Below, in pieces: positions 4,980 through 12,585 of a DNA stretch of 37,701 nt (position 1 is its first letter; each line of letters starts with the position of its first letter). A model generated the notes under the pieces. The model did no database searches. It saw only the letters and a list, made by a program, of their open reading frames with translations, and was not told where the DNA came from. The DNA lies in the NCBI GenBank assembly GCA_038061815.1, contig JBBTYK010000007.1:1-37701 (forward strand), given 5' to 3'. The stretch comes from Patescibacteria group bacterium (GTDB lineage: Bacteria > Patescibacteriota > Patescibacteriia > Magasanikbacterales > JBBTXJ01). The translations under genes and the position numbers were made by a program.

Positions 4980-6335
4980 ATGCGGAAATGGATTATCCTT
5001 TTGTTTGTGTTGTTGCCGCTTCCGGCTCGCGCGGCGACATTCAATCCGGGAAACGTCATCTCGGATTTTGAATTGACGGATTACCTCTCCATGGGCCGCG
5101 ACGCCATTCAGACGTTTTTGGAAAATAAGAGTAGTTTTCTGGCGCGTTTCAAGGCGCCGAACGTGAACGAAACGCTTTTTGACGCCGCGCAAATCATCTA
5201 CGATGCCGCAATCACGCACAAAATCAGTCCGAAATATATTCTGGCGCTTCTGCAAAAAGAACAAAGTCTCGTTGAACACGGCCCGTCAAATCCGTCACAA
5301 AATCAGTTGGATTGGGCGACGGGCTACGCGCTGTGCGACTCATGCAGCGTCAATGACCCGCTGCCGCAAAAATACAAAGGATTCGGCAAACAAGTGGACG
5401 GCGGCGCCGGCGCGAACCGTTTCTATTTTGATAATCCCAACAAATTCGGCTTCCGCATCGGCGTAACGAGTCAGGTTGACGGTACGGCGGTGACGCCGGA
5501 AAACCAGGCAACCGCGAACCAATACATTTATACGCCGCACCTTCAGGGCAACGAAAACTTGTGGAAAATTTGGAATCGCTGGTGGACCAAAAAATTTCCC
5601 AACGGCGTAGTGCTTCGCGCAAAAGACACCGAAGAACTCTGGCTCATTAAAGACGGCAAACGGCTTAAATTCGCCAGCCGCGGCATCTTCTTGAGCCGCT
5701 ACAACCTCAACGAAATCATTGACGTCCCCGCGGCCGAATTGCAGCAATACGACGAGGGCGCGGTCATTAAATTCCCCAATTATTCGCTCGTCAAATCGGA
5801 ACGCGGCATGACGTTTTTGCTGGTTGACGACACCAAACGGCCGTTTTTGAGCGATGCGGTATTCAAAAAACTCGGCTATCATCCGGATGAAGTGGTCGCC
5901 GCAACCGATGAAGAGCTGACGGAATACAAAAATGGAAAATTCATCAGCGATGCAGACCTTTTTCCGCTCGGCGCCGTGGTGAAAAGCCCGCTTTCCGGCG
6001 AATTGTTTTACGTGCATAATGGAGAAAAAGCGCCAGTCGTGAGTGATGCGATTGTCAAAAATCGTTTTCGCAAACAGAAAACGGTGAATATCGCAGCGGA
6101 CCAGCTCACATCGTTCAAATTGGTCGCCGCGGTTAAATTCCGCGAGGGGACGCTCGTCAAAGGCGCGGACGACAAAACGGTGTACGTCATTTCCGATGGA
6201 ATGAAACGGCCCGTCCTATCCGAAGCAACCTTTCTCGGCATGGGGTGGAAATGGGGAAATGTGCAGACGGTTGACCGGTTGAGTTTGCTCATACATCCGA
6301 CTGGTCCAAGGATTGAATTGAATGTTGTTAATTGA
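4980..6335 (+). CDS. Secreted protein: signal peptide, N-terminal domain with a cell-wall-hydrolase-like motif, and four ~55-aa C-terminal repeats
   Basis: Signal peptide MRKWIILLFVLLPLPARA/AT. The segment ISPKYILALLQKEQSLV resembles motifs seen in peptidoglycan-hydrolase accessory domains. Four repeats of the pattern G.lvK....ly.i.dG.krP.....f...g......v....l, starting at VVLRAKDTEELWLIKDGKRLKF, YSLVKSERGMTFLLVDDTKRPF, GAVVKSPLSGELFYVHNGEKAPV and GTLVKGADDKTVYVISDGMKRPV. Confidence 0.7.
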   Translation: MRKWIILLFVLLPLPARAATFNPGNVISDFELTDYLSMGRDAIQTFLENKSSFLARFKAPNVNETLFDAAQIIYDAAITHKISPKYILALLQKEQSLVEHGPSNPSQNQLDWATGYALCDSCSVNDPLPQKYKGFGKQVDGGAGANRFYFDNPNKFGFRIGVTSQVDGTAVTPENQATANQYIYTPHLQGNENLWKIWNRWWTKKFPNGVVLRAKDTEELWLIKDGKRLKFASRGIFLSRYNLNEIIDVPAAELQQYDEGAVIKFPNYSLVKSERGMTFLLVDDTKRPFLSDAVFKKLGYHPDEVVAATDEELTEYKNGKFISDADLFPLGAVVKSPLSGELFYVHNGEKAPVVSDAIVKNRFRKQKTVNIAADQLTSFKLVAAVKFREGTLVKGADDKTVYVISDGMKRPVLSEATFLGMGWKWGNVQTVDRLSLLIHPTGPRIELNVVN

Positions 6336-9706: not shown

Positions 9707-11233
9707 GTGTACACTACCACCATGTCCCAATTCACGCGCTACACCCTGTTTTTTACAGCCGCGTTTCTGACTTTGCACGGGCTCTCGCTCCTCTCGTTTT
9801 TTGTTGAGCCGCTTCGGCCGGTGTTATTTTTTGTCTTGCTTGGAGCGGCGGCAGTTCTCGCGTTTTGGAAACCGGCGTACGCTGCGGTGCCTATTATTCT
9901 TGAACTACTCCTTGATTCAAGCGGCCATTTGTTTGAATGGCGCGGATTGTCGTTGCGATTACTGGTGTTCATCGTGACAATGGCCGTATGGACATTTCAC
10001 GCCATACGGCGCAAAGCACTATTGAAACAATTGCACACGCCATTTACCGCCATCTACGGCGCGATACTCGTTATCGTGGCGCTTGCGGCATATAACGGCT
10101 ATCTCAATGGACATGCGGTACGCGCAGTTATCGCCGACGCAATTCCGTTTTTGTATTTGGCGTTGTGGTATCCGTTACGCGCATTATTCCCTGAGCGAAG
10201 CGAAGCGGAGTCGAAGGGCAACGCTTCGACAAGCTCAGCGCACAATGTATTGGTACCACTCCTCCTCGGCTCCTTTCTCGGCGCCGCCATTCTTTCTCTC
10301 ATTGCGCTATTTCTTTTTTCATCCGGTTTGCAAGAAATCCACGGGCCGTTTTACACATGGTGGCGCGATTGGGTAGCCGGTAAAGCAACGAGCACGGGAT
10401 TTGGGTTTTATCGTATCGTAACGCCGTTGCATTTATTTTTGACCGCGCTGGTGCCGTTTGTTGTATATGTCATCCTTAAAATCCGAACTGAAGGAACTCT
10501 TCCCGTCATTGCGAGGAGTGAGTCCGACGAACGACGAAGCAATCTAATTATTAGATTGCTTCGCTTCGCCCGCGGCTTCGCTCGCAATGACAAATTATGG
10601 CTTCTTATCATCATCCTCCTCGTCCCCGTCATCAACTTCTCCCGCATCTATTTTCTCGCCATTATTCCAGCGACACTCATCATGGCATTAAAATTGCCGT
10701 GGAAAAAAGTGGCGCTAACGCTTATCATCATTGGCGCCGTTTCGCTTGCAGAATATGCTGTCGTCAATCTTGCGGCCTCGCGCGGGACATCGCTCGGTTT
10801 TGAATTTTTGACACAACAATCCCGTGGCATTATTGACCCGGAATCAGAAGCGTCGGCCTCCGCGCGCGCGGCCATACTCCCCCATTTGCTCGGGAAAATA
10901 AAAAACCGCCCGCTCTTGGGCGAAGGACTTGGCGCATCAGTCACGTATTACAATGCGTTTCTGGAAAAAGAGTCAACCACGCGGCATCTTGATTGGGGGT
11001 ATCTGGAACTTGCCGTGGAATTCGGCCTGTTTGTTGCCTTGTTCTTCCTTGGACTTCTCGTTTGGCTGTTTTATCACGGTTTTCGGAATCCTCTTGCCGC
11101 CAGTATTCTGGTTTTCCTTGCCGTGACGGCACTCACCACCCCCGCTTTGTTTCATGTGTACGGAATTACGCTTATTTTAGCGGTTTTATTGGCAACCAAC
11201 TTACTAAAACTTGACAAAGTTCAACAAGTATGA
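9707..11233 (+). CDS. Polytopic membrane protein, O-antigen ligase/polymerase (Wzy_C)-like
   Basis: 508 aa with about 12 hydrophobic segments. The C-proximal RPLLGEGLGAS motif is typical of O-antigen ligase-like proteins. The track start at 9707 is GTG. An ATG at 9722 (MSQFTRY) sits 7 nt after a TACACT -10-like hexamer and may be the true start. Confidence 0.65.
   Translation: MYTTTMSQFTRYTLFFTAAFLTLHGLSLLSFFVEPLRPVLFFVLLGAAAVLAFWKPAYAAVPIILELLLDSSGHLFEWRGLSLRLLVFIVTMAVWTFHAIRRKALLKQLHTPFTAIYGAILVIVALAAYNGYLNGHAVRAVIADAIPFLYLALWYPLRALFPERSEAESKGNASTSSAHNVLVPLLLGSFLGAAILSLIALFLFSSGLQEIHGPFYTWWRDWVAGKATSTGFGFYRIVTPLHLFLTALVPFVVYVILKIRTEGTLPVIARSESDERRSNLIIRLLRFARGFARNDKLWLLIIILLVPVINFSRIYFLAIIPATLIMALKLPWKKVALTLIIIGAVSLAEYAVVNLAASRGTSLGFEFLTQQSRGIIDPESEASASARAAILPHLLGKIKNRPLLGEGLGASVTYYNAFLEKESTTRHLDWGYLELAVEFGLFVALFFLGLLVWLFYHGFRNPLAASILVFLAVTALTTPALFHVYGITLILAVLLATNLLKLDKVQQV
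10189..10243 (+). repeat. GC-rich repeat inserted in-frame (ccctgagcgaagcgaagcggagtcgaaggg + cgcttcgacaagctcagcgcac)
   Basis: Encodes PERSEAESKGNASTSSAH in a loop of the membrane protein. The first half belongs to the same family as 22631-22660, 12311-12356 and 11797-11828. Confidence 0.75.
10505..10591 (+). repeat. 87-bp palindromic element inserted in-frame (11-bp terminal inverted repeats GTCATTGCGAG/CTCGCAATGAC; central 13-bp perfect hairpin)
   Basis: gtcattgcgag...CGAAGCAATCTAA tta TTAGATTGCTTCG...ctcgcaatgac. Arms were checked by hand. 87 nt is 29 codons, read as VIARSESDERRSNLIIRLLRFARGFARND. Confidence 0.85.
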
Positions 11234-11239
11234 TATTCT
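11211..11239 (+). promoter_or_regulatory. Sigma70-type promoter (TTGACA-N17-TATTCT) overlapping the stop codon of the upstream gene; would drive the non-coding transcript
   Basis: cTTGACAaagttcaacaagtatgaTATTCT. The -35 is perfect, the spacer is 17 nt, and the -10 matches 4 of 6 positions. It uses the same cTTGACA form as the promoters at 2286, 21431 and 35236. Confidence 0.5.
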
Positions 11240-11245
11240 TCTTTC

Positions 11246-11778
11246 GAAGAAACCCCGTTGCGGAAGGCGGCGAACGGGTGTCACTTGCTGATGAAAGCGG
11301 ATGGACAAGGACGTTCTCGTCAATCCAGATGGGAAAGACAGGGCGTCTGTGCTCCAAAGGCCACGGAACGCTTATCCGCTAGAAGGTAGGTGGGATTAAG
11401 CCGGAAGTAAAACCCGCGGGGCTCCATAAGAGGTGAAAACAGCCTCGGAGCCCCGCGGGTCGCATGCAAATCCCGCGCCGTAAAGACGATGGGCTCCCCG
11501 ATGGCCATCGGGGTAGAGTGGGAATTTCCCCCTCGTTGGTGCTGCAGCACCTCGCCGTTGGGCAACGGCGTCACTGGTTCCCTCTTGTGGGACTGGTGGG
11601 CGAGGGATTCCTTTCTTTCTCTAGGCTCGTCATGCCGCCTAGGCAGTGACGGCCTCGTCACCCTCTACCAGATGAGAATGCAACTCTCAACGGCAGAGGG
11701 ATGATACCGCTCGAAGGGATCTGGTGATCCCGAAATTGGCTCCCCTTCTCAAGCTCGGCTTGCGGAGGGGATTTTTTT
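11246..11778 (+). ncRNA. Candidate large (~530 nt) structured non-coding RNA, family unassigned
   Basis: It fills a 590-bp gap between convergent genes in a window where other gaps are under 130 bp. There is no credible ORF. It is promoter- and terminator-bounded on the + strand. Perfect or near-perfect helices: 11411-11423/11445-11457 (13 bp, extended by GAGG/CCTC), 11494-11511, 11536-11549, 11551-11568, 11626-11634/11641-11650, 11659-11664/11695-11700, 11714-11729. Confidence 0.6.
11739..11777 (+). terminator. Rho-independent terminator (TCCCCTTCTCAAGC tcg GCTTGCGGAGGGGA + T7)
   Basis: The outer stem TCCCCT/AGGGGA and inner stem CAAGC/GCTTG are followed by tttttttattt on the + strand. The minus-strand reading has no T-run after the hairpin. 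Confidence 0.75.
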
Positions 11779-11796
11779 ATTTCTGAATCCCCTCCC

Positions 11797-11828
11797 CGCC
11801 TTCGACTCGCCCTTCGGGCTCGCTCAGG
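11797..11828 (+). repeat. GC-rich repeat copy (ccgccttcgactcgcccttcgggctcgctcagg) overlapping the 3' end of the GT2 gene
   Basis: Same family as 22631-22660. The last codons and the TGA stop of the GT2 gene (..LSA*; stop is the rc of tca at 11824-11826) lie inside the repeat. Confidence 0.7.
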
Positions 11829-12585
11829 CAGAAAGATTGTGTTTCTCCATAATAATCCGCTTTGCCTCGCGATAGCGCTGCACTTCGCGCGGCATCCAGC
11901 CGAAGATGGGCCACGGAATTTTGTGCACAAACGACGGTAGCCATAAACTCATGCCGCTTTTGCGCGGTTTTATCGTAAACAATACTTCCGGCACCCATAC
12001 GCCGGTTTTATTTTGTTCCAACATCGTAAGCCACAAATCCCAATCCTGAAATTTTTTCAATGATTCGTCAAAGCCGGGGAAATCTTTTGCCCGCATTAAA
12101 CTGGTTGTGGTGATGTATGGCATTTTCCGCAAATGCTCCGCGTCAAATGGGCCGCATATAAATGTTTTGAACCCGAATTTGAAAGAGGAATACGCATACG
12201 ACGCTTCCGGATGTTCTTCCAGCGCGCGTTTCATTTTCTCCAAACAATCGGGATGCATTTTGACGTCGGCATCGCAGAAGATGACGTAGTCGACGGTATC
12301 AGTGGCATTAGATCCCTCGACTTCGGCCGGCTTCGCCGTCCTTCGCTCGGGATGACAATAAGAAAATCCTCTATTCCGTGCCGCCGCGGCGCCGCGGTTT
12401 TCTTGGTGAACAAACGTAATGGGCAGTCTGTCCTTCCACGCATCGGCCACAGATTCCGGAGCATCCGCACTGCCATCATCCACAATTACAATCCGATTCG
12501 GCCGCGCCGTTTGCCCATACAACGAAAAAAGGCACCTCCCCAGTGCCTCCGCATGATTGTAGACTGGAATTATTACGTCTAACAT
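11824..12585 (-). CDS. Family 2 glycosyltransferase (GT-A fold)
   Basis: MLDVIIPVYNHAEALGRCLFSLYGQT...IVIVDDGSAD and the DxD-like FCDADV motif. I place the start at ATG 12585 (MLDVIIPVYN), 4 nt after the stop of the upstream GT4 gene, rather than the track start at 12621. Confidence 0.88.
   Translation of the reverse strand: MLDVIIPVYNHAEALGRCLFSLYGQTARPNRIVIVDDGSADAPESVADAWKDRLPITFVHQENRGAAAARNRGFSYCHPERRTAKPAEVEGSNATDTVDYVIFCDADVKMHPDCLEKMKRALEEHPEASYAYSSFKFGFKTFICGPFDAEHLRKMPYITTTSLMRAKDFPGFDESLKKFQDWDLWLTMLEQNKTGVWVPEVLFTIKPRKSGMSLWLPSFVHKIPWPIFGWMPREVQRYREAKRIIMEKHNLSA
12311..12356 (+). repeat. GC-rich repeat inserted in-frame in the GT2 gene
   Basis: gatccctcgacttcggccggcttcgccgtccttcgctcgggatgac. 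Read on the coding (minus) strand it gives HPERRTAKPAEVEGS, just upstream of the DxD motif. Confidence 0.7.

Follow-up and report, generated by a model that had tools for sequence, protein, structure and literature searches.

What does a bacterium with a small genome keep in a gap of 590 nt between two convergent genes? The 37.7-kb stretch of DNA analysed here in full (contig JBBTYK010000007.1, hereafter the window) raises this question at one place, where the plus-strand gene for a Wzy_C-like membrane protein ends at 11233 and the minus-strand gene for a GT2 glycosyltransferase ends at 11824, the remainder of the window being densely gene-packed. A preliminary description of this DNA had singled out the gap as unusually long and had proposed that it encodes a stand-alone structured RNA outside the known families; the ends of the two open reading frames (ORFs) and the tight packing of the other genes bear out the first point. 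Our data indicate that the gap is occupied by a separate gene for a structured non-coding RNA, read from the plus strand, whose family is absent from Rfam. The proposal thus holds with several corrections: the RNA is made of two modules, it is dispensable and present in few lineages, its 3' third is variable, and read-through from the upstream gene could also produce it.

The evidence comes largely from comparison with loci obtained via homologues of the Wzy_C-like protein and of GT2 (Table 1, where identities are those of the Wzy_C-like protein unless stated otherwise). A check for homologues had been suggested, and it returned the same RNA, hereafter type I, at the same place between the Wzy_C-like and GT2 genes in four lineages, the L004, L009, L006 and L033 groups. 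The promoter cTTGACA-N17-TATTCT that had been placed at 11211-11239 is present and is the sole site of this kind in 10800-12200; the chance expectation for that interval being 1.0 ± 1.2, a single consensus match alone stands at chance level, and both promoter and terminator are credible because they are conserved in the homologous loci. The TGA stop of the Wzy_C-like gene (11231-11233) at the same time provides the TGn of an extended -10 element, and a TTGACA near the end of this gene followed by TGnTAnnnT is kept in every locus with an RNA. The arrangement is kept in L004, L006, L009, L010, L011, L060, L061 and L063, even where the downstream sequence differs, and in L007, a locus without the RNA, the -35 element is degenerate (TAGACA). 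At the other end, the GC hairpin and T7 that had been described as the plus-strand 3' frame lie at 11741-11778, with arms (11741-11754 and 11758-11771) that are 86% complementary and a T7 at 11772-11778, the whole being separated by 46 nt from the stop of the GT2 gene that runs towards it. All type I RNAs finish with a GC-rich hairpin of this kind and 6-8 T (at least six in all homologues), and the sequence of the hairpin differs between the window and L004, L006 and L009. From these signals, a sigma-70-type extended -10 promoter overlapping the last codons and the stop of the Wzy_C-like gene would drive the RNA, with transcription starting near 11246 and ending at the terminator, which would give a transcript of about 530 nt. 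On reading the sequence, no terminator was seen between the Wzy_C-like stop codon and the RNA, so that read-through would also make the RNA the 3' untranslated region (3' UTR) of that operon. A side observation concerns the coding end of the promoter: the -35 TTGACA encodes the Leu-Asp of KLDK, the last codons of the Wzy_C-like protein, so that protein end and promoter are superimposed.

The sequence between these signals folds with an excess of stability. The minimum free energy (MFE) of 11246-11778 is -255.7 kcal/mol, compared with -206.5 ± 7.0 for dinucleotide shuffles (z = -7.05, with none of 100 shuffles as good), and an excess is also found in the homologues (z = -8.9 in L004, -6.6 in L006, -7.8 in L009 and -6.4 in L011). 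The minus strand of the same interval reaches -234.2 kcal/mol (z = -6.75), so that the plus strand folds better by 21 kcal/mol. The strand is fixed by the conserved helices, since many of their pairs are G-U in some sequences and would be A-C on the opposite strand. The GC skew is positive over the RNA, the plus strand being G-rich there, and negative in the C-rich flanks. The preliminary description had found no credible ORF in the gap, in agreement with our results: the ORFs present measure 43-113 amino acids (aa), none exceeds 113 aa, and their frames are not kept in the homologues, those over the conserved blocks lying in different frames in the window, L004, L006 and L009. Codon-periodic substitution, which had been named as the mark of a missed protein gene, was not seen in the homologues; close strains differ by indels of 1, 2 and 4 nt, with changes of frame.

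Selection for pairing is apparent in the first of the two modules, module A, a domain built around a three-way junction with a GA-rich internal loop. In an alignment of six sequences (A3), RNAalifold predicts 32 pairs, 93.7% of the pair cells being standard. Fourteen of these pairs are changed on both sides, compared with 6.0 ± 1.6 after shuffling of the partners (none of 500 shuffles attaining 14), the sequences being few and related and the shuffle controls ignoring kinship; slid controls, in which the partners were moved by 1-3 columns, give 0-4 such pairs. Covariation affects six of the seven pairs of P3. One hairpin of the junction has the conserved form GUGCUCC-nAAGGCCAC-GGAGCAC, its 9-nt loop being conserved as well, and the covariance model made from module A (R1) matches only members of the RNA family. 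The covariation check that had been proposed for the listed helices therefore finds compensatory changes in this part of the molecule. Two known motifs were considered for the internal loop. The letters of GAUGAA/AGAA fit a kink-turn, but on our reading the standard register would break covarying P2 pairs in the window and in L004. A hammerhead ribozyme was considered, as CUGAUGA (11288-11294) and AGAA (11381-11384) face each other across the loop, and was rejected: the loop lies between only two helices, the core varies among relatives (L004 has U for the essential first C, and L009 reads CCGAAGA) and no hammerhead model matches. A partial internal duplication was also noticed, GACGTTCTCGTCA..CCAGATGGGAA of module A (11310-11335) recurring as GACGGCCTCGTCA..CCAGATGAGAA (11648-11678) in the strain-specific 3' domain.

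Table 1. Features of the RNA locus in the window and content of the homologous sites (coordinates of loci refer to their own contigs; -10 regions are those of the first-named locus).
Feature or locus	Position	Strand	Description	-10 region
Promoter	11211..11239	+	-35 TTGACA 11211-11216, spacer 17, -10 TATTCT 11234-11239; 10/12 matches, TG upstream	TGATATTCT
Module A	11246..11395	+	about 150 nt; three-way-junction domain with GA-rich internal loop	
Module A, P1 hairpin	~11252-11281	+		
Module A, P2	11282-11289 with 11385-11392	+		
Module A, GA-rich internal loop	11290-11295 facing 11381-11384	+	GAUGAA facing AGAA	
Module A, P3	11296-11302 with 11374-11380	+		
Module A, variable hairpin of three-way junction	11303-11348	+		
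Module A, hairpin	11349-11371	+	GUGCUCC-AAAGGCCAC-GGAACGC	
Linker	11393..11411	+	GGGAUUAAGCCGGAAGUAAA; conserved UAAGCCGGAA	
Hairpin B1	11412..11460	+	base ACCCGCGGG/CCCGCGGGU conserved, tip hypervariable	
Conserved block	11461..11492	+	UCGCAUGCAAAUCCCGCGCCGUAAAGACGAUGG; also written AAAUCCCGCGCCGUAAAGACGAUGG	
Hairpin B2	11494..11516	+	CCCCGAU-GGCC-AUCGGGG	
Four-way junction	11520..11607	+		
Junction, closing stem	11530-11536 with 11600-11606	+	CCCUCGU with GCGAGGG; GGAAU/AUUCC can extend (reading and MFE fold)	
Junction, arm 1	11538-11551	+	GGUGC-UGCA-GCACC	
Junction, arm 2	11553-11570	+	CGCCGUU-GGGC-AACGGCG	
Junction, arm 3	11571-11599	+		
Pyrimidine tract	11608..11622	+	UUCCUUUCUUUCUCU; UUCCUUCCCU in L004, L006, L009	
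3' domain	11623..11735	+	helices CGUCAUGCC/GGCAGUGACG, CCCUCU/AGAGGG, GGGAUC/GAUCCC	
Intrinsic terminator	11741..11778	+	14-bp imperfect hairpin, then U7	
L004 (+ L003, L005, L020)			Uhrbacteria RIFCSPLOWO2_02_FULL_51_9; 76% identity, gap 768 nt, type I RNA	TGATATATT
L009 (+ L012, L024, L039)			69% identity, gap 668 nt, type I RNA	TGATACTGT
L006			metagenome-assembled genome labelled Magasanikbacteria; 68% identity, gap 630 nt, type I RNA	TGATATTGT
L033, L055, L035			strains 93-99.8% DNA-identical to window; type I RNA	
L060			69% identity; 5' part of RNA, then contig end	TGATATTCT
L011, L064			68% identity; module A only, then directly terminator	TGATAGACT
L007	5383-5399		49% identity; empty site, same convergent genes 16 nt apart	
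L010	4332-4990		48% identity; about 600 nt between promoter and hairpin/T-run terminator	TGCTATAGT
L061	3245-3540		62% identity; different structured RNA, z = -5.8	TGATATAAT
L063	2035-2470	-	GT2 64% identical; different structured RNA, z = -8.45	TGCTATAAT
L062	2338-2747		50% identity; tRNA 5' half, then group I intron, same promoter position	

The second module, module B, combines elements that hardly change with elements that change entirely. Its linker carries a 4-nt indel (GUAA) between the window and L033 and L060. Hairpin B1 has 14-nt perfect arms and folds as a 19-bp hairpin (z = -8.6), and its position holds hairpins of other sequence in L033, L009 and L004. In L033, whose DNA is 93% identical to the window, the tip is wholly replaced and still pairs, GGGGCUCC/GGAGCCCC becoming GGGGGUUCC/GGAACCCCC and GAGG/CCUC becoming AAGGGA/UCCCUU; as MAFFT misaligned such variable tips, the hairpins were folded singly. 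The 25-nt block CCGUAAAGACGAUGG is, in contrast to this tip, invariant in all five carriers of module B, and hairpin B2 keeps the same CCCGA/UCGGG core with a different tip in L004, L006 and L009. In the alignment of the four-way junction (A7), nearly all of the 25 pairs are invariant and two, both in arm 3, are compensatory; the corresponding covariance model (R2) matches only the window, L033, L004, L006 and L009. Over the whole of module B, 12 of 120 predicted pairs are compensatory among L004, L006 and L009. These three have an additional 110-250 nt between B2 and the junction, without counterpart in the window, and the exact topology of the junction is uncertain because its strands may pair with this insert. 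In the longer variants the 3' part of the pyrimidine tract is predicted to pair, closing a three-way junction. The 3' third of the RNA differs between lineages: the 3' domain is found in its present form only in the window, L033 and L035, which are identical there, and it aligns weakly with that of L004, L006 and L009.

The helices listed in the preliminary description all exist in the sequence, at positions about 2 nt higher than it had given, and their fate in the relatives is mixed. The 13-bp stem, which belongs to the hairpin at 11412-11460, is upheld by the wholesale replacement of that hairpin; GGTGCTGCAGCACC and CGCCGTTGGGCAACGGCG are invariant in relatives, so that comparison neither supports nor refutes them; and CGTCATGCC/GGCAGTGACG, CCCTCT/AGAGGG and GGGATC/GATCCC are confined to this strain and to the relatives that are 93-99.8% identical to it. 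The helix that had been supposed to join the 5' and 3' segments and to close the whole molecule finds no support, the 5' segment making a local hairpin in the MFE fold, which relatives can also form on our reading of their sequences, and the 3' domain not being conserved outside the strain.

No known RNA family accounts for the locus. Scanning the whole window with cmscan against Rfam 15 (4227 families) gave nothing at the gathering score, and at E<=10 the interval 11100-11900 gave noise only, the best match being a Tymovirus tRNA-like element on the minus strand with 24 bits for a cut-off of 40; the check that had been advised thus leaves the RNA without a known family. The homologous regions gave no Rfam match either, the searches having extended to seven further loci, including the longer homologue searched alone at E<=10, and no riboswitch aptamer class was matched in the window or in that longer homologue. 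ARAGORN detected no tRNA or tmRNA in the 37.7 kb and no tmRNA in the loci searched, and no tmRNA model matched at 11100-11900. RNase P, tmRNA, SRP, 6S, group I and group II introns, OLE, ROOL, GOLLD, HEARO, raiA and the self-cleaving ribozymes can be set aside to the extent that covariance models recognise them, in agreement with the earlier failure to find by eye an RNase P core, a tmRNA 3' end or an SRP motif.

Several candidates were tried individually and rejected. For RNase P, with its P4 (GGAAAGUCC... with ...ACAGAA..CCGGCUUA) and conserved regions CR-I to CR-V, the sequence has, on our reading, an AAGCCGG but no conserved strand to pair with it; CGGCUU occurs once, in a terminator loop peculiar to the window, and L004, L006 and L009 lack it. 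For a group I intron, the Intron_gpI model, which detects the intron of L062, has no match in the window at E<=10, and no tRNA or other exon flanks the RNA. By eye, CCGUAAA-GACGAUG, GGUGCUGCA and GUUGGG...CAACG resemble 16S rRNA, but no small-subunit rRNA match was obtained at E<=10. A TIGR or CRISPR-like array is opposed by the lack of tandem repeats, and insertion of a mobile element by the lack of flanking repeats. For an anti-Shine-Dalgarno sponge, the complements of the pyrimidine tract in the window are uninformative, and in the longer variants part of it is predicted to pair.

Comparison with described systems gives likenesses of form. OLE, ROOL, GOLLD, raiA and HEARO also measure hundreds of nucleotides, with many helices and multi-way junctions, and combine invariant blocks among variable hairpins, a patchy distribution and modular gain or loss of domains. 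The RNA of the window differs from them in having no phage or tRNA neighbourhood in the window and a distribution that is, as found so far, far narrower; unlike OLE with oapA, or HEARO with IscB, it has no associated protein gene of that kind. RNase P RNA, compared by eye, is of a similar size class, the four-way junction with two short hairpins recalling P7-P10 and AAGCCGG the P4 5' strand, but the present RNA has no match to its model, lacks on our reading the P4 partner and the conserved regions, and is dispensable in relatives. The small RNAs (sRNAs) MicL and DapZ, derived from 3' UTRs, have, as here, a promoter overlapping the end of the upstream coding sequence and a terminator shared with a read-through mRNA; such sRNAs, however, measure about 80-300 nt and act through a single-stranded seed and Hfq, whereas the RNA of the window family, of 530-680 nt, is almost wholly paired, and no seed was found in it.

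The relatives further show that the RNA is composed of two separable modules. In L011 and L064, model R1 matches with 123-134 bits and R2 does not match, and L006 has module B only, its RNA starting at the 3' strand of P2. Neither model matches in L010, L061, L062 and L063, elsewhere in the window, or in the 9.4 kb of L007. The sites of these loci differ in content. The stretch of L010 folds without excess stability (z = -1.0 to -1.6), resembles none of the other RNAs and lacks a convincing ORF. The RNAs of L061 and L063 share CUGAUGCC-hairpin-GGCACAGA, in which the hairpin shows compensatory changes, and they have no Rfam match; their hairpins are tipped by UGCA or GGUGCAC, recalling arm 1 of the junction in the window. 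The tRNA 5' half of L062, GCGGGGTAGAGCAGTCTGGCAGCTCGCCGGGCTC, looks like the Met/CAU type and is interrupted at the anticodon by the intron (Rfam Intron_gpI, 37.9 bits, E = 8e-7, below the gathering score of 50), inside which the contig ends. This tRNA intron shares its upstream gene and the position of its promoter with the window locus, and both loci hold structured RNA several hundred nucleotides long; unlike the intron, the RNAs of the window, L004, L006 and L009 have no Intron_gpI match, no tRNA exons and no sequence similarity to it.

Between the window and L033, all differences fall in 11272-11466 and 11875-11947, the 408 nt in between being identical; these differences amount to 45 in the 5' half of the RNA and to 18, mostly third-position changes, in GT2. 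Such a patchy pattern between co-occurring Hainich groundwater strains suggests either recombination between strains or a chimeric assembly. Beyond these loci, scans with exact patterns found a single locus in genome contigs, from the same species as L009, 47 loci in metagenome contigs, of which 40 are chance matches in GC-rich coding DNA, and none in viral contigs, so that no strain beyond those of Table 1 was gained, and blastn against phages and plasmids gave no match; as the pattern scans need exact words, the narrow distribution is a lower bound. Two observations concern the contigs themselves. Those of L060, L061, L062, L033 and L055 end in or beside the RNA region, which may reflect strain variation or uneven coverage. 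That of L012 (CAZWRL010000002.1) is titled as an uncultured Gammaproteobacteria; since its 701-nt RNA region is the same as in L009 and its ORF layout matches, the label looks wrong.

Taken together, these data lead us to consider the product as most likely a trans-acting folded RNA, a reading that we hold with a little more than even confidence. The invariant elements sit inside a fast-changing scaffold, which suggests a specific binding or tertiary role: they would form a binding surface for a protein or a nucleic acid, or else make tertiary or intermolecular contacts. Two of them carry self-complementary loops, UGCA and GGCC, whose sequence would permit self-association. The function appears to be accessory and not essential, because one module or the other, or the RNA as a whole, has been lost in relatives. 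A wider and more speculative proposal, possible but in our opinion rather doubtful, is that this RNA is the founding example of a new class, made up of modular RNAs of large size (0.5-0.7 kb) and with tertiary structure, and specific to bacteria of the Candidate Phyla Radiation (CPR) resembling Uhrbacteria and Magasanikbacteria; it would be housed in a conserved, promoter-driven 'RNA slot' of an envelope-glycan locus, filled by different lineages with structured RNAs of different kinds; the invariant palindromic hairpin GGUGC-UGCA-GCACC, the 9-nt loop containing GGCC and the four-way junction would then mediate RNA-only self-assembly, catalysis or the binding of an envelope-related partner, as opposed to simple regulation by base pairing. 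Several points weigh against a trans-acting folded RNA. The five to six distinct sequences come from one narrow CPR clade, which limits both the power of the covariation analysis and the estimate of distribution; the covariation is suggestive and not formally significant because the shuffle controls ignore relatedness; and the fold of module B is mainly thermodynamic, most of it being invariant or lineage-specific. Catalysis, a ligand or a target left no sign, the search in the window for complements of the pyrimidine tract being uninformative, and a decaying or selfish element would explain the repeated losses among relatives equally well.

The latter explanation, an RNA element without host function such as what is left of a tRNA gene with an intron or of another mobile RNA gene formerly placed behind this promoter, is one of several hypotheses that could be issued, and we consider it rather improbable. 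The tRNA 5' half and group I intron behind the same promoter in L062 are in agreement with it, as are the turnover of the site (type I RNA, the L061/L063 RNA, the unstructured stretch of L010, nothing in L007), the losses of modules and the mosaic pattern of divergence. However, the compensatory changes of module A indicate selection for pairing across lineages whose Wzy_C-like proteins are 68-76% identical, blocks of 15-25 nt are invariant, the Intron_gpI model that detects L062 misses the window at E<=10 and the intron shows no similarity to the RNA, and neither flanking or tandem repeats nor a phage, plasmid or viral match was found. A cis-acting element of the glycan locus is somewhat less improbable, although still unlikely. 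The RNA would then serve the def-fmt-Wzy_C transcript as a structured 3' UTR, stabilising or ending it, or would be an antisense leader that represses the GT2-GT4-flippase operon if transcription passes the terminator at 11778; in Listeria and Clostridium, antisense RNAs under riboswitch control act by such read-through repression. The strictly conserved position between convergent genes, the short distance from the terminator to the GT2 stop codon and the lack, on our reading, of a terminator upstream of the RNA all favour a role in cis, and since the promoter is kept where the downstream RNA differs, transcription into the gap could matter more than the RNA itself. In addition, L004, L006 and L009 have CCYCGUG both in the 5' strand of the junction and in the 5' arm of the terminator, so that alternative pairings are conceivable; the terminator hairpins, however, are far stronger, and the arrangement of the motif differs in the window. 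The terminators, as long local hairpins with 6-8 U, look constitutive and no convincing antiterminator was found; moreover, known leaders are far smaller than this RNA of about 530-680 nt with its two independent modules, no match to a riboswitch family was obtained, and L007 keeps the same operons without any RNA.

By comparison with these two explanations, a very divergent RNase P, tmRNA, SRP or 6S RNA that escapes the covariance models is highly improbable. Its size would fit RNase P RNA or tmRNA, UAAGCCGG looks by eye like the consensus of the RNase P P4 5' strand minus its bulged U, and GGGCUCCAUAAG resembles, again by eye, GGGCUCCAUAGG of E. coli. None of these four families is matched, however, at E<=10 over 800 nt or in four homologues, ARAGORN gives nothing, the P4 partner and the other conserved regions are missing on our reading, and a housekeeping RNA would hardly be absent at the site in L007, halved in L006 and L011 and highly variable among close relatives. 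The slightest weight goes to a missed protein-coding gene or a pseudogene. ORFs of 61-113 aa do exist on both strands, and annotation by gene callers includes one of 84 aa in L002 and one of 168 aa in L004; but the frame differs among homologues, close strains carry the 1-, 2- and 4-nt indels mentioned above, a search of 5.8 billion proteins with the 168-aa product returned that product alone, and promoter, terminator and compensatory changes fit an RNA.

A trans-acting folded RNA being the preferred reading, its interest can be stated within limits. The RNA is new at the level of the family only, in that it matches nothing catalogued, and no described RNA of this kind in CPR bacteria was found in full-text searches of the literature. 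Large structured bacterial RNAs are few, and those that have been solved (RNase P, OLE, ROOL, GOLLD, HEARO) each gave unexpected biochemistry. Since CPR genomes are very small, a non-coding gene of 530-680 nt under structural selection is costly and presumably does something. Close relatives with both modules, with one of them, with another RNA or with none constitute a natural experiment that offers ready comparisons for function, and the locus suggests that a promoter can stay in place while the RNA genes behind it are exchanged.

According to the protein homologue search, the nearest named relatives of the window genes belong to Candidatus Uhrbacteria and Candidatus Magasanikbacteria from groundwater. 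On the plus strand, the genes upstream of the RNA are, in order, ClpB, a 451-aa ORF, PriA, def, fmt and the 508-aa Wzy_C-like membrane protein; the convergent genes of the minus strand encode the GT2 glycosyltransferase, a GT4 glycosyltransferase and a Wzx/MurJ-like flippase. The 508-aa membrane protein (9707-11233) has itself no Pfam match at E<=0.001, and most of its homologues carry PF04932 (Wzy_C). No Pfam family matches the 451-aa ORF (4980-6335) that separates ClpB from PriA; relatives have a protein of 435-453 aa at the same place.

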